Under the pieces are notes generated by a model. It saw nothing but the letters and a program-made list of their open reading frames with translations, searched no databases and had not been told where the DNA came from. The translations under genes and the position numbers were made by a program. This document shows positions 1 through 10,698 of a DNA stretch of 64,000 nucleotides, piece after piece (position 1 is the first letter of the stretch; each line of letters opens with the position of its first letter). The stretch comes from an uncultured delta proteobacterium (lineage in GTDB: Bacteria; Myxococcota_A; Polyangia; Polyangiales; Polyangiaceae), in the NCBI GenBank assembly GCA_963841435.1, contig CAWJCS010000001.1:1-64000 (forward strand), in the 5' to 3' direction.

Positions 1-556
1 CCCGGGAGGTATTCTGCAAGCGTCGGCAGCGCTGGCGCAAGAGACGCCTTTGGTTCGTGGACGAGAGTGGGGTCAACCTCGCGCTCACGCGGGCAAACGG
101 TTGGGCTCCGCGCGGCGAGCGGCTCGTCGACCACGTTCCGGGCAGGCGCTGGGAGAACTTCTCGCTGATTGCCGCGCTGTCGCTCGACGGCGTGCATGCA
201 CCGTTGTTGCTGCCCGGCGCGATGAACACCGAGGCGATGCGCGTCTGGGCTCGGGAGTTCTCGTCCCGCTCCTGAAGCCGGGAGACATCGTCATCTGGGA
301 CAACCTGGGCATTCACACCGACTTCGAGGTGCGCCTCGCTGTCGAGTGCACCGGCGCGCGGCTCGAGTTCCTGCCACCCTACTCTCCCGACCTCAACCCG
401 ATCGAACTGGCCTGGTCGAAGGCGAAAGCGCTCCTGCGTCGCCTTGGTGCCCGCACGTGGCGACGACTGGTCTGCGCCGTCGCCGATGCGCTTCACGCGA
501 TCACGCCGGCCGACTCCGCCGGATGGTTCGGCCACTGCGGATACCCCTCTCCGTGA
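1..556 (+). pseudogene. IS630-family transposase, C-terminal DDE part, 5'-truncated by the window, with a frameshift near 258-262
   Basis: One frame reads [10 protein letters not shown]...GWAPRGER; the other continues VIWDN...[19 protein letters not shown], which are typical IS630/Tc1 DDE motifs. The frames switch at 'gagttctcgtc'. Confidence 0.88.
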
Positions 557-580
557 TCCATCTCATTGAAAACTGCTGTA
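1..580 (+). mobile_element. Right part of an IS630-family insertion sequence, ending ...ATTGAAAACTGCTG followed by TA (579-580)
   Basis: The transposase stops at 556, followed by a short AT-rich terminus and a TA dinucleotide, the known IS630 target. The left end is outside the window, so the inverted repeat cannot be confirmed. Confidence 0.65.
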
Positions 581-585
581 ACGGC

Positions 586-1094
586 TTAACGCCGAAAGAT
601 GAACGAATACAACAGGGGGAAAGCCCCAAGCATCAGATACAAGACGCTTGCGGCGAGGTTGCCTCGCAAGTTCGCGCGATCGAGGTCGTCGGGCTCCAAC
701 GCGAAATCCGGCGGCTTCCCCTCGGCGTCGAGCCGGTAGAACGTCTTCGGGCTGCACAACACAACCGCAATCCAGAGACGGTAGAAGGCGAAAGCGCTGA
801 ACGCCGGCGCTGCGGCGAACAAGACGTAAGGTTGCGCGGGCGTCCCAGTGAATAGGCTGAAGGAAGTCGCCACCGAGACGCACAATCGTGAACGAGAAAA
901 AGAGAAGCGGAAGGACGTTGAGCACTGCGACAGACAGAACGCAGCGCCAGAAGGCCGGGCCTTCGCGAAATGCGTGCGCCCACGCAAAAAGCTTTCCATC
1001 GGGGTTGGGCGCTCGCTGCGGTCCCGGCGAACACGGCAAACAGGATCGTGAAGATCGTCTGCGGGACGTTCAGCGTGAGCGTAGGCGGCGACAC
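586..1094 (-). pseudogene. Cassette 8: multi-pass membrane protein split by two apparent frameshifts (~988 and ~855)
   Basis: Hydrophobic segments continue across three frames: MSPPTL...QPRWK, then AWAHAFREG...VRLGGDF, then LFTGTPAQPY...YSFIFRR. The first shift sits in an A5 homopolymer. Confidence 0.6.
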
Positions 1095-1112
1095 GAGCCC
1101 TTTGATCCGTCT

Positions 1113-1189
1113 GCCTAACGTACCAGGGCGTGAAGCTGCGCGGGTCGAGCGCGAGCGAGGCCCGCGTCTGCTTCAGCCCGGAGTTGGAC
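1113..1189 (-). repeat. attC site (77 bp)
   Basis: Plus strand GCCTAAC...GGGCGTGAAGCTGCGCGGG...CCCGCGTCTGCTTCAGCCC...GTTGGAC, an imperfect palindrome with core sites. Confidence 0.9.
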
Positions 1190-1674
1190 GGCGGCGCGCA
1201 CGTAGGCGTTCCAGCGCTTCGAGCGCATCCCGGTCCAGCTCCTCAGCCGGGGGGCTCCAGGTGGTCTCCTCATCATACATCCAGTAGATTCCCACAATCT
1301 CACCAAGACCTAGCGAGTCGCCCGCGAACGTTGAGTCGCGCTCGGACGCTCCGCTGGCGTAGTAGGCGCCATTCACGATTCTGGAGATCGCGCCGATGGG
1401 CGAGATCTCCCTGGCAAGTGCACGACGCACAGAATCATCGATGATGAGTTGGGTTGCCTCGCCGCGACCTGGCAGTCGAAGGTGGAGCTCACGGAGCGCT
1501 GCGTCCGGGCCCCTCAACCTCCAAACGATCGTAGGTCTGGGGCGAGACCCCTGCCAGCGCAGCGAGGCTTGACGATTCGTAGCCATCCAGCAAAGCGCGA
1601 AGAGCGACCGCCGGCAGGTCATGAGGCGCGATAGTGCCCAGCACATAGTCCGCAAGACTTACGGCAAGCGTCAT
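1173..1674 (-). pseudogene. Cassette 7, gene 2: hypothetical alpha-helical protein, frameshifted near 1508
   Basis: MTLAVSLADYVLG...DRLEVEG (ORF 1489-1674) continues naturally as DAALRELHLRLPG...ALERLRARRRPTPG (ORF ending 1173). An RBS-like AGGGA precedes the ATG. Confidence 0.65.
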
Positions 1675-1687
1675 CGTTCCCTGTTTG

Positions 1688-2167
1688 TTATGGTTGGAAG
1701 AGCGTGCGCCCCATGCCGTCGAAGGCCTTCCTCAAGTCGCGGCTGTAGGCCTCCACGACGAAGGTGAAGTGCCCGCCCGCGTCAACGTGGATTCCGGGCG
1801 CCGAAGAACGCGACGTCATCGCGATTGTACAGCTCTGCTTGACGTAGTATTCGTGCGCGAGGCCACAGCGAAGAATGTTGTAGATATTGTGCTTCGCTCG
1901 CAGGTTCTTGTAGGCGGGACCGAGTAAGTCGAAGAACGAGTTGAAGTTCGCGGATGCGGTGCGGTGGTTGAACATGAGCTTGCCGCCGAACTCTGTGTAG
2001 CAAAGCAGACCCAACGCAGCGAGGAAGTTGCCGCCCCCGGGGAGGACGCCCAAGCGCCGAAGCGTACGCTGCCCGGATTTTCGCGCACTGACCTTGGCGA
2101 GTTGAATCTCGCGCCCGACGTCCGAGAAGATGAAGAGCTTGGCCTGATCGAACTCAGCGCGGTCCAT
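1688..2167 (-). CDS. Cassette 7, gene 1: hypothetical protein with an RxxxxH (HEPN-like) motif
   Basis: 159-aa ORF starting just after the attC core with a GGGGA RBS; contains IYNILRCGLAHEY. Confidence 0.75.
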   Translation of the reverse strand: MDRAEFDQAKLFIFSDVGREIQLAKVSARKSGQRTLRRLGVLPGGGNFLAALGLLCYTEFGGKLMFNHRTASANFNSFFDLLGPAYKNLRAKHNIYNILRCGLAHEYYVKQSCTIAMTSRSSAPGIHVDAGGHFTFVVEAYSRDLRKAFDGMGRTLFQP

Positions 2168-2180
2168 GACATCCCCGTCC

Positions 2181-2255
2181 GTCCAACGTACCAGGTTTCA
2201 GCTGCGCCGCCCGAGCGAACGCGAGGTCGGCGTCTGCTGCAAACCGGAGTTGGAC
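2181..2255 (-). repeat. attC site (75 bp)
   Basis: GTCCAAC gtacca GGTTTCAGCTGCGCCG ... CGGCGTCTGCTGCAAACC gga GTTGGAC; arms pair with extrahelical C and T bases. Confidence 0.93.
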
Positions 2256-2263
2256 GGCAGCGC

Positions 2264-2644
2264 TCAGACGCGCTCGACAAGGACGCGCTGGGCGTGAGTG
2301 GCCAGGGCCTCGAGGTCGTCCGGGTCCGTAGTGAGGACAGTCCCGCCGGGCTCGGCCATGGCCACGACGATCGCGTCGACCGCAGACCCGCGGCGAGCCC
2401 GGCGGCGCAAGAACGCGGCTCTCCGTGCGAGGCTCTCGGGAACGCCTTCGACGACGTCGCAGGTCTTTAGCAGCTGGTTCTCAGTCGCGTCCCGGCCGGC
2501 GTGTCCCTGGAGGCATTCGACCAGAACGACCGCGGGCACAGCGGGTGGCCATAGCGCCTCTTCCCGAAGCGCGACGATCAGCGCCACCGAAGCGCGGGAC
2601 CGCTCTGCGAGCCGGCTGACGGCGCCCGAGTCCAGAACGAGCAA
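2264..2644 (-). CDS. PIN-domain (VapC-like) toxin
   Basis: LVLDSGA N-terminus, VLVE, SAVDAIVVA and VLTTDPDDL give the conserved acidic PIN residues; 126 aa. Confidence 0.88.
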   Translation of the reverse strand: MLVLDSGAVSRLAERSRASVALIVALREEALWPPAVPAVVLVECLQGHAGRDATENQLLKTCDVVEGVPESLARRAAFLRRRARRGSAVDAIVVAMAEPGGTVLTTDPDDLEALATHAQRVLVERV

Positions 2645-2647
2645 CAG

Positions 2648-2896
2648 CTAGCCTACCTTGCGGGTCGCGCGCTTCGCGATTCGCTGTGCGAGCGCCTTCG
2701 CGCGGGACTGCTCGTTGGGCCCAGGTTCACCAACCTCCGCAATCAAGGCTGCCGTAAACCGGTCCGTCTCCGAAAGCAGGTCGCGCCGCCGCACCTCAGC
2801 TCGAACGGCGCTCTGCAGGAGCTCCGAGGCCGGCAGCCGCCGCTTCTTCACGAGACGGTAGAGGTCATCGGGCAAGTACACCTGCATCCGCGGCAT
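2648..2896 (-). CDS. Antitoxin with a ribbon-helix-helix-like N-terminus (VapB/CcdA-like)
   Basis: MPRMQVYLPDDLY...ASELLQSAVRAE; 82 aa, directly upstream of the PIN gene. Confidence 0.85.
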   Translation of the reverse strand: MPRMQVYLPDDLYRLVKKRRLPASELLQSAVRAEVRRRDLLSETDRFTAALIAEVGEPGPNEQSRAKALAQRIAKRATRKVG

Positions 2897-2903
2897 ACGC
2901 CTA

Positions 2904-2931
2904 ACTATACACCCTCGGCAGGTACCGTCAA
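2904..2931 (-). promoter_or_regulatory. Sigma70-type promoter of the TA cassette
   Basis: Minus strand TTGACG-N16-TATAGT, ending 7 nt before the antitoxin ATG. Confidence 0.7.
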
Positions 2932-2948
2932 CGCGCCCCTCTCTGTCC

Positions 2949-3023
2949 GTCCAACGTACCAGGTTTCAGCTGCGCCGGCCGAGCGATAGCGAGGGCGGCG
3001 TCTGCTGCAAACCGGAGTTGGGC
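2949..3023 (-). repeat. attC site (75 bp)
   Basis: Near-identical to 2181-2255; GTCCAAC...GTTGGGC. Confidence 0.93.
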
Positions 3024-3030
3024 AGCCCGC

Positions 3031-3516
3031 TCACCTCACCGTACAGTCGTCAGCCGCTTCGCGTAGCGCGGCGATCATCTCGTCGATGACCTGTTCGCGC
3101 GTTTGCTGAACGATTCGTGCATCGGCTAGGTCTAGCCCATCCCACGCCCACCAGGCGATGCTGCGGAGGCCGTCACCATCGACCTCGTCGCTGAGGGCGA
3201 GCTGGTATAGGGACCGGGCAATCTGATCGGCGCGCCTGCGATCGCGTTCAAGCCCGTCGGCCAAGATCCTGACGACGCCCCGCCTAACTTCACCCTCGTC
3301 CACCGAACCAGGAACTTCACGGAGGGCCGCGACGACGTCTGGCTCATACTTCCGACCAGACATGGCGACCTCGCACACCGTCCAGTGAGGATGGTCCTCA
3401 CCCTCAACAACGCGATCAGCCCATTCCACGGCGTCAGCTACTGACAGCGCCCCGATCTCGATCGCGCGTGCGAGAACCTCAGCCTCAGTCCGCGTAGTCA
3501 CCACAGCAGCCCGCAT
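3031..3516 (-). CDS. Cassette 5, gene 2: hypothetical protein (161 aa)
   Basis: ATG at 3516 overlaps the upstream stop (ATGA) after a GGAGG RBS; the gene ends just before the attC. Confidence 0.75.
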   Translation of the reverse strand: MRAAVVTTRTEAEVLARAIEIGALSVADAVEWADRVVEGEDHPHWTVCEVAMSGRKYEPDVVAALREVPGSVDEGEVRRGVVRILADGLERDRRRADQIARSLYQLALSDEVDGDGLRSIAWWAWDGLDLADARIVQQTREQVIDEMIAALREAADDCTVR

Positions 3517-3854
3517 CACGCCTCCGGCGGGACAACCCTTGCTCTCGGGATCCGCGTCCAGCCATCCGTCAGGAGAAGGCTGCAGGTGCGCCAACGGTCG
3601 GTGGCTAGTCCCCCGAGAGACCATGCATTCCCGAATGCGTCCTCCACGAGGTCACACTGGTCGAGAGCAAGCACCTCACCGACCGCAGACAGCCAGTACA
3701 GGACGTACTTGTCCTCGTGCGACCTGGCCGAACAGAGCGTGATCGCAAGCCACGTCGGCTCGATTCGCGTGGGCGGATCGCCGGCCCAGATCGCCGCCGG
3801 TGCGTCATCGGACGTTCTATCCAGAAATAGAATGACTCGTTCGACCCCGGACAT
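3516..3854 (-). CDS. Cassette 5, gene 1: hypothetical protein (112 aa)
   Basis: ATG shortly after the GTTGGGC core; translationally coupled to the next ORF. Confidence 0.65.
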   Translation of the reverse strand: MSGVERVILFLDRTSDDAPAAIWAGDPPTRIEPTWLAITLCSARSHEDKYVLYWLSAVGEVLALDQCDLVEDAFGNAWSLGGLATDRWRTCSLLLTDGWTRIPRARVVPPEA

Positions 3855-3865
3855 CGTCTTGGTCT

Positions 3866-3965
3866 GCCCAACGTACCGGCGTTCAGCTGCGGGTGCCAGA
3901 GGGAGCGGGTGAGCGCAGCGAGCCGGCGACCGACCAAGCCCGTCTGCTGCAACGCCAAGTTAGCC
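3866..3965 (-). repeat. attC site (100 bp)
   Basis: GCCCAAC..GGCGTTCAGCTGCGGG...CCCGTCTGCTGCAACGCC..GTTAGCC; the upstream gene's TAA stop lies in the core. Confidence 0.9.
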
Positions 3966-4613
3966 AGCCCGTGGAAGGAGGACCTTGGCGAGTTCGGTTA
4001 CCACAAGGGCGGCGTAGTCCTCATCCTTGATGGAGAACTCTCCAACGCCGTCCCGCTCGTTGAGGTTCAAGAAGACCTCCCCTTCGCCATCGGCGAGGAA
4101 GAGCTTCGCGGCGGTCCAGTTCCCCGGGGGCGTGGAGGAAAAGCTGGCGCCGATCTCCGGCTCCTCGAATCTGGTTTGGTTCGTTCCCAGTATCGCAATC
4201 GAACACGTCAGCTCCTCGGCAGCCGCGGGCCGGGGAAGTGTGCCCGAGAAAGAGAGCTCTTTTGCCACGCGGCGTAGGAACTCCGTACAGTCGGAACCGC
4301 CGCGGCGATGCAGCGAGAGCTTGGCGAAGGAGAACAGCCCACTACCTGTCGACTGCGAGGGGCCCTGGCGGAGCTCAAACTTGCACGATGGCGCGTCGTC
4401 GGTTGTCGCGAGGTACCGACGAGAGCCGTCCGCCGCTCCCGTGACGGCAAGATGAAATTGCGTTGGCGCGAGTCGGTGCTCCGAAGTCAACTTGGGTACG
4501 GCAGCGGCCTCGGGCGACGACGCAACGGCACCGGTCGTGGCCGGTCCTCGCGGAACGCGCGAGCAGGCGACCAAGATGGTCAAACAGACACCCAACCGAA
4601 CTCGAGACAGCAT
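3960..4613 (-). CDS. Cassette 4: putative lipoprotein (217 aa)
   Basis: Signal peptide with lipobox LVAC, GAGGG RBS, fills the cassette. Confidence 0.8.
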   Translation of the reverse strand: MLSRVRLGVCLTILVACSRVPRGPATTGAVASSPEAAAVPKLTSEHRLAPTQFHLAVTGAADGSRRYLATTDDAPSCKFELRQGPSQSTGSGLFSFAKLSLHRRGGSDCTEFLRRVAKELSFSGTLPRPAAAEELTCSIAILGTNQTRFEEPEIGASFSSTPPGNWTAAKLFLADGEGEVFLNLNERDGVGEFSIKDEDYAALVVTELAKVLLPRAG

Positions 4614-4625
4614 GTCCCTCTACCT

Positions 4626-4792
4626 GGCTAACGGCTTGGCGTTCACCTGCGGGCCCGACAAGCCTGGGAAGGACTTCCGGTGGGAAGACCGCCGGCTTCC
4701 CGGCAGGTGCGCGCAGCGCACCCTCGGGAAACGAGCCGGCGAGACAATTCCTTACTACTCGGAGGCCCGCCAGGTGCAACGCTGAGTTGGGC
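4626..4792 (-). repeat. Unusually long attC site (167 bp)
   Basis: GGCTAAC..GCGTTCACCTGCGGGCC ... GGCCCGCCAGGTGCAACGC..GTTGGGC, with nested internal stems GCCGGCT/AGCCGGC, TTCCCG/CGGGAA and GGTGCG/CGCACC. Confidence 0.85.
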
Positions 4793-4913
4793 AGCTTCGG
4801 TGTTGGACCGGCAGACAGCGAGCTGGTGAGTCGAAGTCTCGTCGATGACCTTCGCAGAAAGTACGTGCGATCGCCCGTTGGATCACCGGGGTGAGTTCGG
4901 CTAGAGTGGACTC

Positions 4914-6506
4914 GTGCACGACCTGCTTGACGCTCTGCTGCGGCGAGGATGGCTTCCTCGAGAGCTTCCCCCGTGTTTTTCAACCAGTGCATTTGCCGAC
5001 CTCGTAGCATTGGGGAACCTTCCAGTCGAAAGACCTTCAGGTGTTCCGGATGCCGAGCTCTGCGTGCATTCGATGCCGAGGTATGGAAGCCTGCGTAGAG
5101 ACCTTGCGCTGGTAAATCCCCGGGCGTACCTAGGATTGTGCCGAGAGGTAGCAGCCAACTGGCAGGAATTGAAAAGTCACTGTGAACGCTCATCCTTCTC
5201 GGCGAGCGGCCCTGTCATGCAGGCCAGTGGACGAGCCATCGAGCGCCGCGTGCCACGAACGAGTCTCGGAGAAGCACGCGCAAAGAACAGGAGCGGGGGT
5301 CGTGTCCTCCTCAAAGCAGACGTTGGACGATTCTACGGCACGATATACACGCACAGCATTCCGTGGGCACTTCACTCAAGGTCAGTGGCGAAAAGCAACA
5401 AGTCTGCCTCGCTGCTCGGAAACCGGCTGGATGCATGGCTTAGAAAGGGGCAGTCAGGTCAGACAGTTGGAATCCCAGTTGGCCCCGATACGTCGCTTCT
5501 TTTCGCGGAGATGATTCTGTCCTCCGTCGATGCACAGATCTTCGAGTCTCGACGCGGTGTTCGTGCGCTGCGCTACATGGACGACTTCGAGTTTGTTGTC
5601 GGTAGCAAGGACGAAGCCACCGAAGTGCAGGTCGTGCTGGAATCAGCGCTCGCCGCGTACCAGCTTGCACTCAACGCTGGCAAGACAAGTGTTGAGCAGC
5701 TTCCTCAGAGCCTTCAACGAACGTGGGCTACGGAACTCCGCCGGCATTCGCTCGGACTTGGTGACGAATGGGATGCAAAGGACATCGTCGGTTTTTTTAG
5801 CTCGGCGTTTGAACTTGCTCATCGATTCGAATCGGAGCCCGTACTGAACTTTGCGCTGGCTTGTATCCGAGAATCGGACGCGCCTTATACGGAGGGCGCT
5901 CAAGCAGTTTTAGAGGCGCTTATGCTTCAAGCGATGGTAGCTGAACCCGGGACGCATCGGTACGTTCTTGACCATTTCACCACCCATGGCGTCATTGACG
6001 TTGAGCGTCTCTCCGAAGTCTTAGTTGCACACATCGGTGAGAACGCGCGTGCTGGCCACATGAATGAGGTTGCCTGGGGATTGTGGGCGATCACTAGTCT
6101 GGAACTGAATGTCGGGCGCCGCCTATCGGGCACGATCGAGCACCTAAGAAACGACGTAGTCGCACTTCTCGCACTGCGAGCGCAAAATAAGGGTTTCGTT
6201 GAAGGAATCGACGTAACCGGCTGGCGCGCAATAGTCACCATGGGGTCACTCTACGGTCCGCATTGGCTGCTCACCTACGAGTCGCTTGTAAACAATTTGT
6301 TGTCACCGTCAGACAGGACGGCTGCCTTTTTGGAAGATGACTTCTTCTCGGCGCTGCGAGAAAGCGAAGTTTCGTTCTTTGCTCATCAGGGGGAGGAAGA
6401 GGACCAGGACGACGACGAGGACGACGACGGCGGCTACCTCGATGACGACGATGACGACGGCCTGTTCGAGCCGGCTTCCGCTTGGGAAGATGCCTACAGT
6501 CCGTAG
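4914..6506 (+). CDS. Reverse transcriptase of the UG/Abi (defence-associated, DRT-like) group, inverted within cassette 3
   Basis: Motifs ADVGRFYGTIYTHSIPWALH, GIPVGPDTS, RYMDDF and LNAGKT; N-terminal GWLPRELPPCF; long helical C-terminal region ending HWLLTYE, then an acidic tail. Confidence 0.92.
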   Translation: MHDLLDALLRRGWLPRELPPCFSTSAFADLVALGNLPVERPSGVPDAELCVHSMPRYGSLRRDLALVNPRAYLGLCREVAANWQELKSHCERSSFSASGPVMQASGRAIERRVPRTSLGEARAKNRSGGRVLLKADVGRFYGTIYTHSIPWALHSRSVAKSNKSASLLGNRLDAWLRKGQSGQTVGIPVGPDTSLLFAEMILSSVDAQIFESRRGVRALRYMDDFEFVVGSKDEATEVQVVLESALAAYQLALNAGKTSVEQLPQSLQRTWATELRRHSLGLGDEWDAKDIVGFFSSAFELAHRFESEPVLNFALACIRESDAPYTEGAQAVLEALMLQAMVAEPGTHRYVLDHFTTHGVIDVERLSEVLVAHIGENARAGHMNEVAWGLWAITSLELNVGRRLSGTIEHLRNDVVALLALRAQNKGFVEGIDVTGWRAIVTMGSLYGPHWLLTYESLVNNLLSPSDRTAAFLEDDFFSALRESEVSFFAHQGEEEDQDDDEDDDGGYLDDDDDDGLFEPASAWEDAYSP

Positions 6507-6532
6507 ACGCGACCTCCAGTCGGATCGTGTCT

Positions 6533-6606
6533 GCCCAACGTAGCAGGGTTCAGCGGCGTGGGCTGAGCGGAGCGATGCCCACGACCGTTGCAACCCGAAG
6601 TTGGCC
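6533..6606 (-). repeat. attC site (74 bp)
   Basis: GCCCAAC..GGGTTCAGCGGCGTGGGC...GCCCACGACCGTTGCAACCC..GTTGGCC. Confidence 0.9.
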
Positions 6607-6986
6607 CGCCCGAACGAAAGCCGGGTAGCGCGGTTTCAAGTAGCGAAAGAGAGGGTGCCGAAGTCGCGTGGCGTAGCGGGGAACGCGGCCGCGGCCGTGG
6701 TAGATCACCACGGCTGCGCAGGAGGCAGTGCAGCGGGAGCCGCACGGCGTGTGGGGTCAGCCTCGGAACGAAGGTCGCGCCGGACCGGGCGGAGGAGAAA
6801 GCAAGCGCGCGATGACTGATCCAGGATCCCGAGCCACGGAGCGAGTTGGCGAGCCGGGAGAGAAGGAAGCCTATCAAAGGATTCAAGTTGGACGCTCGCG
6901 TCGTGGCGCCGGGCTAGGGCGTGCGCGTCGATTGCGGCATCGAACACAAAACTCGAGAAGCCCCAAGCCCGTTGCGGTCGGGCCAA
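6539..6986 (-). other. Cassette 2: apparently ORF-less gene cassette
   Basis: Bounded by matching cores GTTGGCC/GGCCAAC. No ORF with convincing start, RBS and composition fits inside it; most listed ORFs run across the attC sites. Confidence 0.65.
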
Positions 6987-7056
6987 CGTAGCAGTGTTAA
7001 CCCGCGAAAGCCCGAGCGCAGCGAGGGTTTCGTCGGCGTTCAACACAAAGTTGGGC
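6981..7056 (-). repeat. attC site (76 bp)
   Basis: GGCCAAC..GTGTTAACCCGCGAAAGCCC...GGGTTTCGTCGGCGTTCAACAC..GTTGGGC. Confidence 0.9.
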
Positions 7057-7077
7057 AGCCCTGCGCAGTCCCGCGGA

Positions 7078-7542
7078 TCAGGGCGGTTTTGCTAAAAACG
7101 CACCGGGGCGCAGAGACTTCGCGATGAGGCGAGGAAGAGCGATTGAGCCGAGAGCGATGAGCCACGCCGCTGCAATAGGGACGAGGTCTCTCAAGAAGAT
7201 TAAGGGGGCCAGGACCGCGGGGATTGCGAGTAGGACGGAGAGGGTGAGTGCACCTGGCAGGTTCCTGTCGAACCACGGCAATCGCGCAGTGACCCAGGGG
7301 ACGAGCAGAAAGAAAGGGAGAGCACCGAGCAAACCCATGAGGACACGGGTGAGAATAAACCATTCAAGCGGCAATTCGCCTAGCGCCCAGCCGGGCATTC
7401 GAGTGGCGACAATCAGAAACGGAGCCAGGACAAAAGGGGCGGAAACAAGGCTGAGGCCGAACCAGCGGAGAGCAATGCCAAGCCGCCCGCGGGTTCGGGG
7501 CCAGGTTCGCAAATCGGGCGTGGGATCAAGCACGGCGACCAA
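7078..7542 (-). CDS. Cassette 1: hypothetical membrane protein with about four TM helices
   Basis: 154-aa strongly hydrophobic ORF ending just before the attC; TTG start uncertain. Confidence 0.65.
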   Translation of the reverse strand: MVAVLDPTPDLRTWPRTRGRLGIALRWFGLSLVSAPFVLAPFLIVATRMPGWALGELPLEWFILTRVLMGLLGALPFFLLVPWVTARLPWFDRNLPGALTLSVLLAIPAVLAPLIFLRDLVPIAAAWLIALGSIALPRLIAKSLRPGAFLAKPP

Positions 7543-7787
7543 AGGCTGGTATAGCGTTCAAATACAGGACCTGAACGGAAGCATCTGGGGTTCCGAGTTT
7601 TAGGTCAACTGCGATCGGATTCTGCGCTCGAGTCGAAGTTCGCGGCTGCGAGGGGGGCTCCGGTCTCTATCGTGGGTCAACGTGACGGCGCCGCCCGGAA
7701 CGCAGGCACTGACGGGTCGATCGTCAGAGTGCAACTTGACGAGCGTGCATCATGAATCGGATGGCACCTTCCGCCATCGGTCGGTCT

Positions 7788-7830
7788 GCCCAACTTGTAC
7801 TTCTATGGTTCTGGTTAGTCCAGGTTGGGG
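7788..7830 (-). other. Putative attI site (crossover G|TT at 7794/7793)
   Basis: The last GTTGGGC core of the array matches the GCCCAAC of cassette 1's attC, but has no attC-type paired arms upstream and lies ~150 bp from intI. Confidence 0.65.
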
Positions 7831-7940
7831 CGGTACGGATAGCGCGGGGGATGCGGTGGGGGGACGGTGCGAGGGCTTCGCGCGGGCTGGGGGAGCTTGC
7901 TTTGATAATGGGTAAGGCGGGGTCTGGGTAGTTCGGGGGG

Positions 7941-8717
7941 TTAGTCGAGGGGGCTGCGGACGCCGAAGGGGCCGCGGTTGAGGACGTGGGTGTAGACCAT
8001 CGTGGTGGCCACGTCGCGGTGGCCGAGGAGCTCTTGGATGGTGCGGATGTCGTAGCCGGCTTCGAGGAGGTGGGTGGCGAAGCTGTGGCGGAGGGTGTGA
8101 CAGCTCGCTGGCTTGGTGAGGCCGCAGGCGCGGACGGCTTCGCGGAAGGCGCGCTGGAGGACGGTTTCGTGGAGGTGGTGGCGGCGACGTTGTTGCGTTT
8201 TGGAGTCGCGATAGAGGCGGGTTGCGGGGAGGATTTGGCCGGCGGAAAAGTCGAGGTCTTTCACGCGCAGGCGCGCACATTCGAGGACGCGGAGGCCGGA
8301 GCCGTAGAGGAGCTCCGCCATCAGACGCACCGTGCCGGAGAGGCGCTCGAGCACCTGGCGGACTTCGTCGCGCGTGAGCACGAGCGGGAGGCGCGGCGAG
8401 CGTGCGGGGCGCTGGAGGTCGTCGATCCACGGGGGGCTGACGCGAAGGACGTGGCGGTAGAGAAACGCGAGGGCGCAGAGTGCTTGGACGTGCGTGGAGG
8501 CGCTGACGTCGTGCTCCACGGTGAGCATGTCGAGGAAGGTTCGAGCCTCTTCGGCTCCTAGTTCGTTCGGGTGACGGCCGTGGAAGGTGACGTATCGTCT
8601 GATCCAGCCGGTGTAGGCGCGACGGGTTCGCGGGCTCAGATGGTGCTCGGCGAGGGCCCGCTCGACGGCGTCGCGCAAGGGGCGGGCAGGAGGTCGATCG
8701 GGCGGACGTGCGCTCAT
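7941..8717 (-). CDS. intI: Integron integrase with an in-frame internal deletion (probably inactive)
   Basis: [89 protein letters not shown]. Only 258 aa, and the GKG.KDR segment is absent. Confidence 0.92.
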
Positions 8718-8792
8718 GCGCTCCGGTCGGTCGGCAGCAATGCGGATTGCGCGACCGTGAAGCGCGCTCCGCGCCGGCAGAAAGCGCGATGT

Positions 8793-8838
8793 GCGCTGAC
8801 GAGGGAAAGGCGCTGACGAGGGACAGCGCTCACGAGGG
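8793..8838. repeat. Three direct repeats GCGCT(G/C)ACGAGGG upstream of intI
   Basis: Copies at 8793-8805, 8810-8822 and 8826-8838. Confidence 0.75.
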
Positions 8839-9048
8839 TGAGGCGTGGCGACCAGCGGAACGCGGACTGGGTGTGGCCGACGATTCCTGGCGTGGGCAGA
8901 CGAGCGCGGGCGTGGGTACGATTCCAGTCAGGGGGGTATTCCGTGCGGTCGGCCGTGTGGGCGGAGGGGGCGTCGGAAGGTGGCGGGCGTTGAGGCGGCT
9001 TTGGGGTGTGTTTTGGGGGATCCCTCAAGTCTGGCCGAGGGTGGCCGT

Positions 9049-10698
9049 TTGTCCGATCGGCTAGAAGCGTTCGTGGCGAGCTCGGCTCCTTCCATCGTTC
9101 CTTCTCCGGGTGCTCCGGGGGAGGATCTTTCCATCACGCGGCAGGCGACGCGCGTCGGTTCGACGTCGGTCGTCGTGCCGCTGCGCGAGGATCGCTACGC
9201 GCCGGGGGTGATCGTCGAGCAGAAGTATCAGCTCGTGCGTTTGCTCGGTGAAGGTGGGATGGGGTCGGTGTGGGTGGCGAAAAATCTGACGCTCGGCGTG
9301 CACGTGGCGCTGAAGCTCATGCACAGCGAGCTCGCGACGCAGCTGCCGGGCGCGGCGGAGCGCATGCTGCAGGAGGCCCGCGCGGCGGCGTGCATCGGGC
9401 ATCCGGCCATCGTTCAGGTCTTCGATTTCGGGCGGACGCGCGACGGTGAGCCGTACATCAGCATGGAGCTTTTGGATGGGGAGAGCCTCGCGGCGGCGCT
9501 CAAGCGCCGCGGCCGTTTGCCGGCGGTGCGCGCGCTGCAGGTTCTGCTTCCGATTGCCGACGCGCTGTCGATGGCGCACGCACGCGGGATCGTGCACCGT
9601 GATTTGAAGCCGGACAACGTGCTGCTGGCTCAGTTCTCCGACGGGCGGTCGCAGCCCAAGATCCTGGATTTCGGCATCGCGAAGCTCGAGAACACGACCT
9701 CGCCCAAGCTGACGCTCGACGGCACCGTGCTCGGTAGCCCCGCGTACATGTCTCCCGAGCAGGCGCGCGGCGAGGCGGAGATCGACCACCGTGCCGACGT
9801 GTGGGCGTTCTCCGTAATGATCTACGAGCTCGTGACCGGCAGGGTGCCGTTCAGGGGCGACGGCTACAATGCGCTGCTCTGGGCCATCATCGGGCATCCG
9901 GTGCCGCCGCTCTCGGCGCACGGCATCGACGAGCCGGAGCTCTGGGCGATCCTCGAGCGCGGGCTCAAAAAGGATCGCAACGAGCGCTTTCAGAGCATCC
10001 GCGATCTCGGGCGCGCCGTGGCCAAGTGGCTCGTCGCCCGAAAGGTGAAGACCGACATCACGAAGGCGCCGCTCGACGCGTGGCTGCACGACTCGGCCCG
10101 AGAGCGCTTCTCGGTGTTCTCGTCGCTTTCACCCGGCAGTGGATCGAGCGACGAGCCGAGGGCGCCGTCGACGCTGGCGCCACCTGACATTCTCGTGGTC
10201 CCCGCGGCGAGCGCCGTGCCGGAGACGCAGCGTTCGCCAGGCCTGGTGTTGTTCGACGGTCTCCGGGTTGCCGCGCTCGACGCCATGCAGCGACTGTTGT
10301 CGCGCCCGAGGCCCGAGGCGGCGTCGCCGAGCCCGCGCCTCGCGAGGACGGCACCGCGTGCGCGGCCTGCGCGCCGTCCGTCGTGGCAATGGGCGGTGCT
10401 CGCCTTCTTGGTGCTCGGTGCTTTCGTCGTGGCGGTCTCGTTCCGCTCCGGGCCCGAGGTCGAAGCGGCGCGCGCGGCGGAGCCGTCCCCGTCCGCCGTG
10501 CCCGCCGCTCCCGTGCTCGACGCGTATCTGAAGCGTCCGCCGCAGCGCGAGGAGCCGACCGTCGACGAGCCGCCGGTGGTCGAGGAGGCGCCGGCGATCG
10601 CTCCGGCACCGAAGCCGGAGCGCGCGGTACGCGTCACGCGACCGAGGCCCGCGCGCCGCGCGGGGTCGTCGGCCGAGCTCAAGAATCCGTTCCGCTGA
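9049..10698 (+). CDS. Eukaryotic-type Ser/Thr protein kinase with a TM helix
   Basis: GEGGMGSVW, VALK, HRDLKPDN, DFG and YMSPEQ motifs; start approximate. Confidence 0.92.
   Translation: MSDRLEAFVASSAPSIVPSPGAPGEDLSITRQATRVGSTSVVVPLREDRYAPGVIVEQKYQLVRLLGEGGMGSVWVAKNLTLGVHVALKLMHSELATQLPGAAERMLQEARAAACIGHPAIVQVFDFGRTRDGEPYISMELLDGESLAAALKRRGRLPAVRALQVLLPIADALSMAHARGIVHRDLKPDNVLLAQFSDGRSQPKILDFGIAKLENTTSPKLTLDGTVLGSPAYMSPEQARGEAEIDHRADVWAFSVMIYELVTGRVPFRGDGYNALLWAIIGHPVPPLSAHGIDEPELWAILERGLKKDRNERFQSIRDLGRAVAKWLVARKVKTDITKAPLDAWLHDSARERFSVFSSLSPGSGSSDEPRAPSTLAPPDILVVPAASAVPETQRSPGLVLFDGLRVAALDAMQRLLSRPRPEAASPSPRLARTAPRARPARRPSWQWAVLAFLVLGAFVVAVSFRSGPEVEAARAAEPSPSAVPAAPVLDAYLKRPPQREEPTVDEPPVVEEAPAIAPAPKPERAVRVTRPRPARRAGSSAELKNPFR

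Follow-up and report, generated by a model that had tools for sequence, protein, structure and literature searches.

The locus considered here lies in the genome of an uncultured delta proteobacterium of the family Polyangiaceae (assembly GCA_963841435.1), within the first 64 kb of contig CAWJCS010000001.1 (C1 below); this stretch of 64,000 nucleotides (nt) is referred to as the window, and coordinates are those of the window unless another contig is named. It holds an integron integrase gene (intI; 7941..8717, minus strand), an attI-like crossover box (7788..7794, minus strand), and seven attC sites between 1108 and 7061 on the same strand, which delimit gene cassettes. The third cassette from the attI-like site (4632..6538, minus strand; 1,907 bp) is complete and contains one credible open reading frame (ORF), which lies on the plus strand and encodes a reverse transcriptase (RT). 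We think it likely that this gene specifies a single-protein abortive-infection RT of the DRT6 (UG12) type, one that occupies cassette 3 of a sedentary chromosomal integron in an orientation opposed to the array. A preliminary description of the locus had already taken it for a stand-alone UG/Abi RT in an inverted integron cassette, and had further supposed that it might form an uncharacterized subgroup, that it was excisable, and that it had its own promoter; the first of these views is borne out by what follows, and the others fare less well.

The RT gene spans 4914..6506 on the plus strand, begins with GTG, ends with a stop codon at 6504-6506, and encodes 530 amino acids without internal stops. 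Its translation contains, as had been noticed before, the motifs YTHSIPWA, GIPVGPDTS, YMDD (residues 221-224, nt 5574-5585), and LNAGKT, and the YMDD motif together with the motif A aspartate, D136, supplies the RT palm residues, although Pfam recognizes only the generic domain RVT_1 (39.6 bits, residues 107-261). The catalogue entry for this gene (P0005) has 331 residues, identical to the C-terminal 62% of our translation, and starts at an internal methionine, omitting the conserved N-terminal 199 residues (4914-5510); because family members align from residue 3-8 onward, that gene call is too short, and residue 3 of the window RT aligns to the inferred residue 2 of DRT6 (an offset derived from the published D223/D224). 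An alignment of 35 family sequences (A1), also used as input for an AlphaFold model, has 30 invariant columns, which by definition are kept in the window RT and include D136, H147, D173, and D223; D224 is nearly invariant. The model (predicted local distance difference test score [pLDDT] 88.5, predicted template modeling score 0.88) divides into three parts. The fingers/palm lobe (4914..5768, plus strand; about residues 1-285) carries D136, H147, D173, and YMDD, its boundary being set by analogy with DRT4 (1-286) and by the secondary structure of the model. An all-helical C-terminal repeat lobe with high pLDDT (5769..6383, plus strand; about residues 286-490) replaces the thumb domain and superposes on DRT6, DRT4, and AbiK. 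The last part is a disordered acidic tail (6384..6503, plus strand; about residues 491-530) with pLDDT below 50 for residues 494-523 and 525-530, and its tip, E-P-x-x-A-W-E-D-x-Y-S, is common to the window RT and its nine closest homologues in A1.

Profile searches and structure comparison both place this protein beside DRT6. The best-scoring PADLOC model was that of Drt6/UG12 (PDLC03748; E value 8.1e-142, 471.7 bits), which aligns RT residues 4-503 with profile positions 3-491 of 511; it was followed by two older Drt4 models, matched at full length (PDLC02177, 447.6 bits; PDLC02179, 428 bits), by the Drt4/UG15 model that belongs, like Drt6, to the "DRT" set (PDLC03752, 261.6 bits), and at lower scores by UG30, UG14, AbiK (127.9 bits), and Abi-P2 (113.9 bits). 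The NCBIfam equivalog model for Drt4 (NF041749) gave 234.5 bits, below its cut-off of 450. Among sequences in the Protein Data Bank (PDB) the best match was 9wy8 (214.8 bits over residues 3-490), the UG15/DRT4 chains reaching 117 bits over residues 4-317 only. Foldseek likewise ranked 9wy8_A, "Cryo-EM structure of the hexameric DRT6," as the top match of the RT model (template modeling [TM] scores 0.85/0.91, root mean square deviation 2.5 Å, 30% identity), with DRT4 (TM 0.77-0.83), AbiK (0.60-0.68), and Abi-P2 (0.51) at lower ranks and group II, retron, and diversity-generating retroelement (DGR) RT structures at 0.40 or less. A retron was rejected as a candidate (26.7 bits vs. a model cut-off of 235; retron and DGR structures at TM 0.29-0.35 only), and the grouping with group II, retron, or DGR enzymes that the preliminary description had named as the outcome that would tell against it did not occur, the group II intron and retron models scoring far below their cut-offs. 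As judged from these profiles and the predicted fold, the window RT is a divergent DRT6/UG12-type class 1 UG/Abi RT with a helical C-terminal region and not an uncharacterized subgroup; that description had itself conceded that a strong match to a known DRT would count against novelty. The family is large, with 929 representatives of 50%-identity clusters matching at E ≤1e-30, and the closest homologues fall into two sets of four sequences, one with 58-76% and the other with 44-46% identity. The cassette has the single-gene layout of DRT6, which involves neither a noncoding RNA nor a partner effector: a scan of positions 1-10000 against Rfam at E ≤0.9 returned no family besides one chance-level match elsewhere, a result that leaves an uncatalogued RNA possible.

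Residues with assigned roles in the related enzymes can be followed in these alignments. H147 and D173 align with the ribonuclease (RNase) pair of DRT4, H160 and D192, and with the same residues in DRT6, and both are invariant in A1 (35 of 35). The tyrosine on which DRT4 primes synthesis, Y125, aligns in a phmmer alignment to V113 of the window RT, and a tyrosine in the fingers-palm loop of DRT6 aligns to G119; across A1 no conserved Tyr/Ser/Thr column was found in that loop.

The limits of the cassette are given by two attC sites. Its own site (4621..4797, minus strand; R'' box 4786-4792, R' box 4626-4632, crossover G at 4632) is long, about 167 nt from box to box, and that of the preceding cassette (6528..6611, minus strand) has an R' box, 6533-6539, that supplies the first six bases of the RT cassette (6538-6533). 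Both boundaries are of the form G|TT, and these six bases, TTGGGC, can pair with GCCCAA, the R'' box of the same cassette. On the plus strand the boxes read GCCCAAC at 6533-6539 and GTTGGGC at 4786-4792, hence GTTGGGC and GCCCAAC on the minus strand; the matching cores reported earlier at 6539 and 4792 are therefore real boxes, parts of attC sites, and the cassette span of 4632..6538 proposed with them is exact. Two covariance models support the sites. R1 was built from the seven window sites, imperfect palindromes at 1108-1194, 2176-2260, 2944-3028, 3861-3970, 4621-4797, 6528-6611, and 6976-7061, and comprises 23 pairs, of which 9 show compensatory changes; R2 was built from 15 sites outside the window, themselves selected by R1. 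The RT cassette's own attC scores 61.1 bits with R1 and 48.2 bits with R2 (E 4e-9), and its DNA fold has a free energy of -52.9 kcal/mol (z score -5.25); the preceding site scores 84.9 and 74.7 bits (E 2e-15). The two sites flanking the RT still look sound. R2 recovers all seven window sites (E 4e-9 to 6e-22), and the same complementarity between a cassette's opening six bases and its R'' box holds in 7 of 7 cassettes, in spite of differing box variants. Bounded by attC sites, bearing the signature of a circular intermediate, and standing in an array beside intI and an attI-like site, the RT gene and its flanks constitute a single-ORF integron cassette.

The array extends beyond the window. 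In the same genome R1 found 12 further attC sites, 10 of them on the same strand within the last 17 kb of a second contig, C5 (C5:1830080-1846843), and transposase fragments lie at both contig ends, at the start of C1 and at the end of C5; the array thus probably runs across the assembly gap between the two and comprises at least 17 cassettes. Fragments of IS630-type transposases are found at the C1 start (2-556) and within the C5 part, which also contains two identical IS110-type ORFs, and two solitary attC-type sites lie far from the array (C5:848681-848765, 70.8 bits; C5:929825-929938, 53.8 bits).

The direction of the array follows from the integrase and from the sites themselves. The attI-like box, GTTGGGC, lies downstream of intI, some 150 nt past its stop codon, and the permutation signature of the first cassette matches it; intI, this box, and the first cassette succeed one another on the minus strand, so that intI and the cassettes are co-directional. 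Read on that strand, the attC sites show a spacer of 5 nt, an L'' box of 8 nt with a single additional base in the 5' arm, and a 3' spacer of greater length, which matches the layout of classical top strands, and they score 61-99 bits with R1, whereas on the plus strand no score exceeds 20 bits. Applied to 80 related integron loci, R1 gave 95 matches in 35 loci, in all 95 of which the modeled strand reads away from intI; 92 of the 95 lie downstream of intI and are co-directional with it, and 3 lie upstream and are divergent. (By locus, the array is downstream and co-directional in 33, and the classical divergent layout occurs in only 2, L096 and L115.) Since the modeled strand reads away from intI, the minus strand of the window is the array direction, and the RT gene opposes it. 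That the RT is antisense to every other cassette gene holds within the window, where all other cassette ORFs with a coding-like pattern of guanine-plus-cytosine (GC) content at the three codon positions lie on the minus strand (an ORF at 3960-4613, also minus, was left out of the scoring); it does not hold for the C5 part, where a methyltransferase ORF and insertion sequence (IS) transposases are also found on the plus strand.

By composition the RT cassette looks foreign. Its body has a GC content of 0.57, below that of each of the other six window cassette bodies measured (0.61-0.69), and GC at third codon positions (GC3) of the RT gene is 0.60, against 0.687 for the genome, in agreement with the lower GC that had been remarked on earlier. 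The integron, for its part, is damaged. The intI product matches TIGR02249 with 310.6 bits (cut-off 265) and has no stops, but an in-frame internal deletion leaves profile positions 151-216 unmatched; the 67 missing residues are present in 6 of 6 aligned relatives and include the GKG..DR (lysine) hairpin and the integron-integrase-specific segment. No other integron integrase above the TIGR02249 cut-off was found in this 95%-complete genome, and IS110, IS4-like, and IS630 elements lie within the array. Because intI has lost these residues and the genome offers no other integrase over the cut-off, excision of the RT cassette, which the preliminary description had inferred, is doubtful and could proceed only with an integrase provided in trans. 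Three tandem 16-17-nt repeats (GCGCTGACGAGGGAAAG-like; 8793-8842), which may be an operator, lie in the 127 nt that separate the intI start from a divergent Ser/Thr kinase gene (8845-10698).

How such an enzyme might work is suggested by DRT6 and DRT4, which the reports cited here present as single-gene abortive-infection systems that make protein-primed untemplated single-stranded DNA (ssDNA) and are triggered by phage ssDNA-binding proteins (SSBs). The name DRT6 was given to UG12 once it had been found to protect moderately against T5 and ZL-19, an effect that depended on the RT catalytic motif (PMC9226505). DRT6 of Sphingopyxis is reported to act by abortive infection against T5, to be oligomeric, to produce template-independent DNA covalently bound to protein, and to become toxic when the T5 DNA-binding protein ORF55 is present or sbcB is knocked out (PMC12783706). 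Its sister system DRT4 is described as a hexamer that primes on Y125, has an RNase site formed by H160 and D192, and needs a flexible C-terminal subdomain (508-540) for sensing of the phage SSB (bioRxiv 10.64898/2026.10.21.760695; bioRxiv 10.64898/2026.10.27.754916). By homology with both, the window RT would assemble into a hexamer and would constitutively produce short untemplated ssDNA, covalently primed on a residue of its own, which a host 3'-5' exonuclease would hold in check. During infection a phage SSB would bind or protect this product, possibly with participation of the flexible C-terminal tail; by analogy with the C-terminal subdomain of DRT4, the acidic disordered tail is a candidate trigger sensor. 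The RT would then become toxic, either because ssDNA accumulates or through the putative RNase site of the His-Asp pair (as in DRT4; here H147 and D173), and the infected cell would die or halt growth before phage maturation, to the benefit of this host's defense against phage. The RT gene being antisense to the array, its transcript must start in the 121 nt between its own attC and the start codon (4793..4913, plus strand), a segment presumed by position only to be the promoter and 5' region, and transcription would thus be independent of the integron promoter. By eye, a weak TTGGAT-18 nt-TAGAGT ends 6 nt before the GTG start, under the threshold of the promoter scan described below.

Several observations weigh against assigning the window RT to a working DRT6-type system. 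One of the older Drt4 models, PDLC02177, scores near the Drt6 model, so that the boundary between DRT6 and DRT4 is soft here on profile scores, and the window RT is no more than about 30% identical to the DRT6 prototype. The close clade, at 58-76% identity, is known from metagenome contigs by sequence alone. The priming tyrosine of DRT4 has no counterpart in the window RT, and the alignments point to no priming residue; furthermore, RNase activity is reported for DRT4 only in the work cited (bioRxiv 10.64898/2026.10.21.760695). A scan of 4400-7000 for sigma-70-type consensus promoters returned no sites, which leaves the earlier idea of an own promoter without a consensus sequence to rest on but is weak evidence for a 69% GC organism. 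Lastly, the internal deletion in the integrase and the IS invasion describe a decaying locus, in which the RT gene could be silent.

The last of these points can be made into an explanation of the whole locus: the RT would look intact yet be a mere passenger, silent or without function, in a dead integron. Lying antisense to array transcription and lacking a promoter that works in this host, it would persist only because the time for decay has been too short. The 67-residue deletion, the IS110, IS4-like, and IS630 elements, the blank promoter scan, and a GC3 of 0.60 without amelioration toward the host are all compatible with this. However, a frame of 530 codons has stayed open with every family-invariant residue kept, the lack of amelioration fits a recent arrival equally, and RT prototypes are reported to work from short native upstream regions, for which 121 nt are available here; we therefore regard a silent passenger as unlikely. 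A different objection concerns the type of enzyme. If the RT were of the DRT4 (UG15) type rather than DRT6, the purine-rich ssDNA, the guanosine-specific RNase, and the SSB sensing dependent on the C-terminal domain would apply to it directly, and the full-length matches to PDLC02177 and PDLC02179, the alignment of H147/D173 with the DRT4 RNase pair, and a fold similarity of TM 0.77-0.83 could be cited in its favor. Yet the score with the NCBIfam Drt4 equivalog is little more than half the cut-off, the Drt4 model of the "DRT" set stands at 261.6 bits as compared to 471.7 for Drt6, the DRT4 chains in the PDB match only residues 4-317 whereas DRT6 matches over its full length (identity 22% vs. 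30%), and Y125 is without an equivalent, all of which makes membership in DRT4 quite improbable.

Two further alternatives turn on the integron context. The classic RT of integrons is that of the group IIC-attC intron, which inserts in attC sites antisense to the cassettes. An RT gene that is antisense to the array and stands beside an unusually long attC recalls just this arrangement, but the group II RT/maturase model TIGR04416 gives 44.3 bits where its cut-off is 300, no group II intron RNA was found in the Rfam scan, the C-terminal half is a DRT6/AbiK helical lobe and not a maturase with a thumb, group II RTs superpose with TM 0.37-0.40 only, and the gene lies between two complete attC sites and not within one. 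On the model score, the Rfam scan, and the fold we consider the group II reading refuted, and we give a group IIC-attC intron practically no credence. It could also be asked whether the RT is in canonical orientation and the other cassette genes are inverted, the plus strand being the top strand of the array. The consensus boxes R'' and R' are reverse complements and by themselves leave the strand open, and the RT stop codon precedes an attC box by 27 nt, as it would in an ordinary cassette. The spacer and L'' layout on the minus strand and the R1 scores oppose this view, as does the modeled strand in the 35 related integrons, which points away from intI in every one, including the 2 divergent loci; moreover, an attI-like box between intI and the first cassette exists in the minus reading only, and minus-strand ORFs, among them the PIN toxin pair, directly adjoin their attC sites. 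Site layout, model scores, and related loci thus led us to reject the plus strand as the top strand, a reading that we rate as very improbable.

Where the cassette came from is suggested in part by its distribution. Of 400 other genomes sampled from the phylum, only 4 have an RT homologue at E ≤1e-20, all at 31-37% identity. The nearest relative of the integron, a Polyangiaceae metagenome bin with near-identical attC sites (86-95 bits), is among the related loci; a tblastn search with the RT over all 80 of them (988,046 bases) gave no match at E ≤1e-3. R1 found one match only, at E 9, near distant RT homologues (30 loci, 232,232 bases), and with filters off it gave only 11-bit matches on the four RT loci of the same phylum; the model being lineage-specific, both blanks carry little weight. 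A generic attC detector had about 0.5 false matches per kb in GC-rich DNA, and the stricter version that succeeded it misses 3 of the 7 known window sites, finding 4. With the latter, 10 matches were found near RT gene ends, in 8 of 34 loci (0.45 per kb, vs. 0.10 per kb elsewhere), several of which are plain AT-rich hairpins, and this enrichment of attC-like palindromes near distant RT homologues is suggestive only. Among these are long palindromes ending in GGCTAAC...GTTAGTC (L036 3400-3493, the same as L037 212-305) and GGGCAAC...GTTGCCC (L041 3439-3573), 40-130 nt upstream of RT homologues of about 30% identity on marine metagenome contigs; the palindromes in L036, L037, and L041 may be attC sites.

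The remaining cargo of the array consists of PIN and DUF4926/DUF6883 pairs, a PhyH protein, a MarR regulator, and a methyltransferase. Within the window only the PIN gene has a family match among the scored cassette ORFs; with a small upstream ORF it forms a toxin-antitoxin-like cassette (2264-2896, minus strand), and comparable cassettes in the C5 part (locus L023) hold a DUF4926/DUF6883 pair and a second PIN gene (4238-4776 and 6992-7411 of that locus, both minus strand). The RT is the only gene in the array with a full-length PADLOC match, the methyltransferase ORF having a partial match to mad2.

What the locus adds is a clean, fully delimited DRT6-type RT in the form of a mobile cassette, and the unit 4632-6538 lends itself as a minimal construct for tests of a divergent clade of a family now studied for untemplated DNA synthesis. 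It also indicates that integron arrays can accommodate an abortive-infection RT in antisense orientation, which bears on how the orientation and position of cassettes relate to the cost of defense genes. One could envision, as a tentative and rather doubtful generalization, that class 1 UG/Abi RTs travel between phyla as self-promoted inverted cassettes and that the acidic tail with its aromatic tip serves as bait for the phage SSB. Under such circumstances inversion would uncouple the RT from the array promoter and yield a constitutive enzyme wherever the cassette lands, as a DRT6-type sentinel needs, which would differ from the "silent biobank" model of distal cassettes, and the tail as bait would extend the "two-factor" sensing model of DRT4 to DRT6-type enzymes. 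No new class is opened by these findings, as the family, the fold, the chemistry, and integron defense cassettes have all been published already.

Among known systems, the closest is DRT6 of Sphingopyxis (9wy8), compared here on the protein level, the context of the window RT being an integron cassette. The two share a full-length hidden Markov model match, the fold (TM 0.85/0.91), the single gene, the YxDD motif, the His and Asp residues that match the DRT4 RNase pair, and an acidic C-terminal run. They differ in that identity is about 30%, that the loop tyrosine of DRT6 is a glycine in the window RT, and that the latter belongs to a small clade (four members at 58-76%, four at 44-46%) with a conserved C-terminal tip of its own. 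With DRT4 of E. coli (9vdo, 21ou, 9l9s) the window RT has in common the class 1 architecture, a fold at TM 0.77-0.83, the His-Asp pair, and a flexible C-terminal segment; unlike DRT4, with which it is 22% identical, it falls below the NCBIfam Drt4 cut-off, has no equivalent of Y125, and carries a C-terminal lobe that cannot be aligned by sequence. AbiK of Lactococcus and Abi-P2 of P2-like prophages are members of the same class 1 UG/Abi family with the same overall fold but are more distant (TM 0.51-0.68, identity 16-17%, sequence match in the RT core only).

Defense genes in integrons are likewise well established, as the preliminary description had assumed: for 30,000 genomes, a review puts the number of antiphage systems carried in integron cassettes at 783 (PMC13434031), and reports describe experimental tests of such cassettes from mobile integrons and superintegrons (bioRxiv 10.1101/2024.07.02.601719; 10.64898/2026.03.17.712381). 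A partial literature search, without supplementary lists, found no paper describing a UG/Abi RT as an integron cassette, and the word "integron" is absent from the main text of the UG/Abi survey (PMC9226505). The phage-defense cassettes known as BRiCs and those of the Vibrio cholerae superintegron resemble the present one in being attC-bounded defense genes in an integron array; according to the reports cited, however, those tested are mostly small and driven by the array promoter, whereas the window cassette measures 1.9 kb, carries its gene antisense to the array, and belongs to an integron with an internally deleted integrase that is co-directional with the cassettes.

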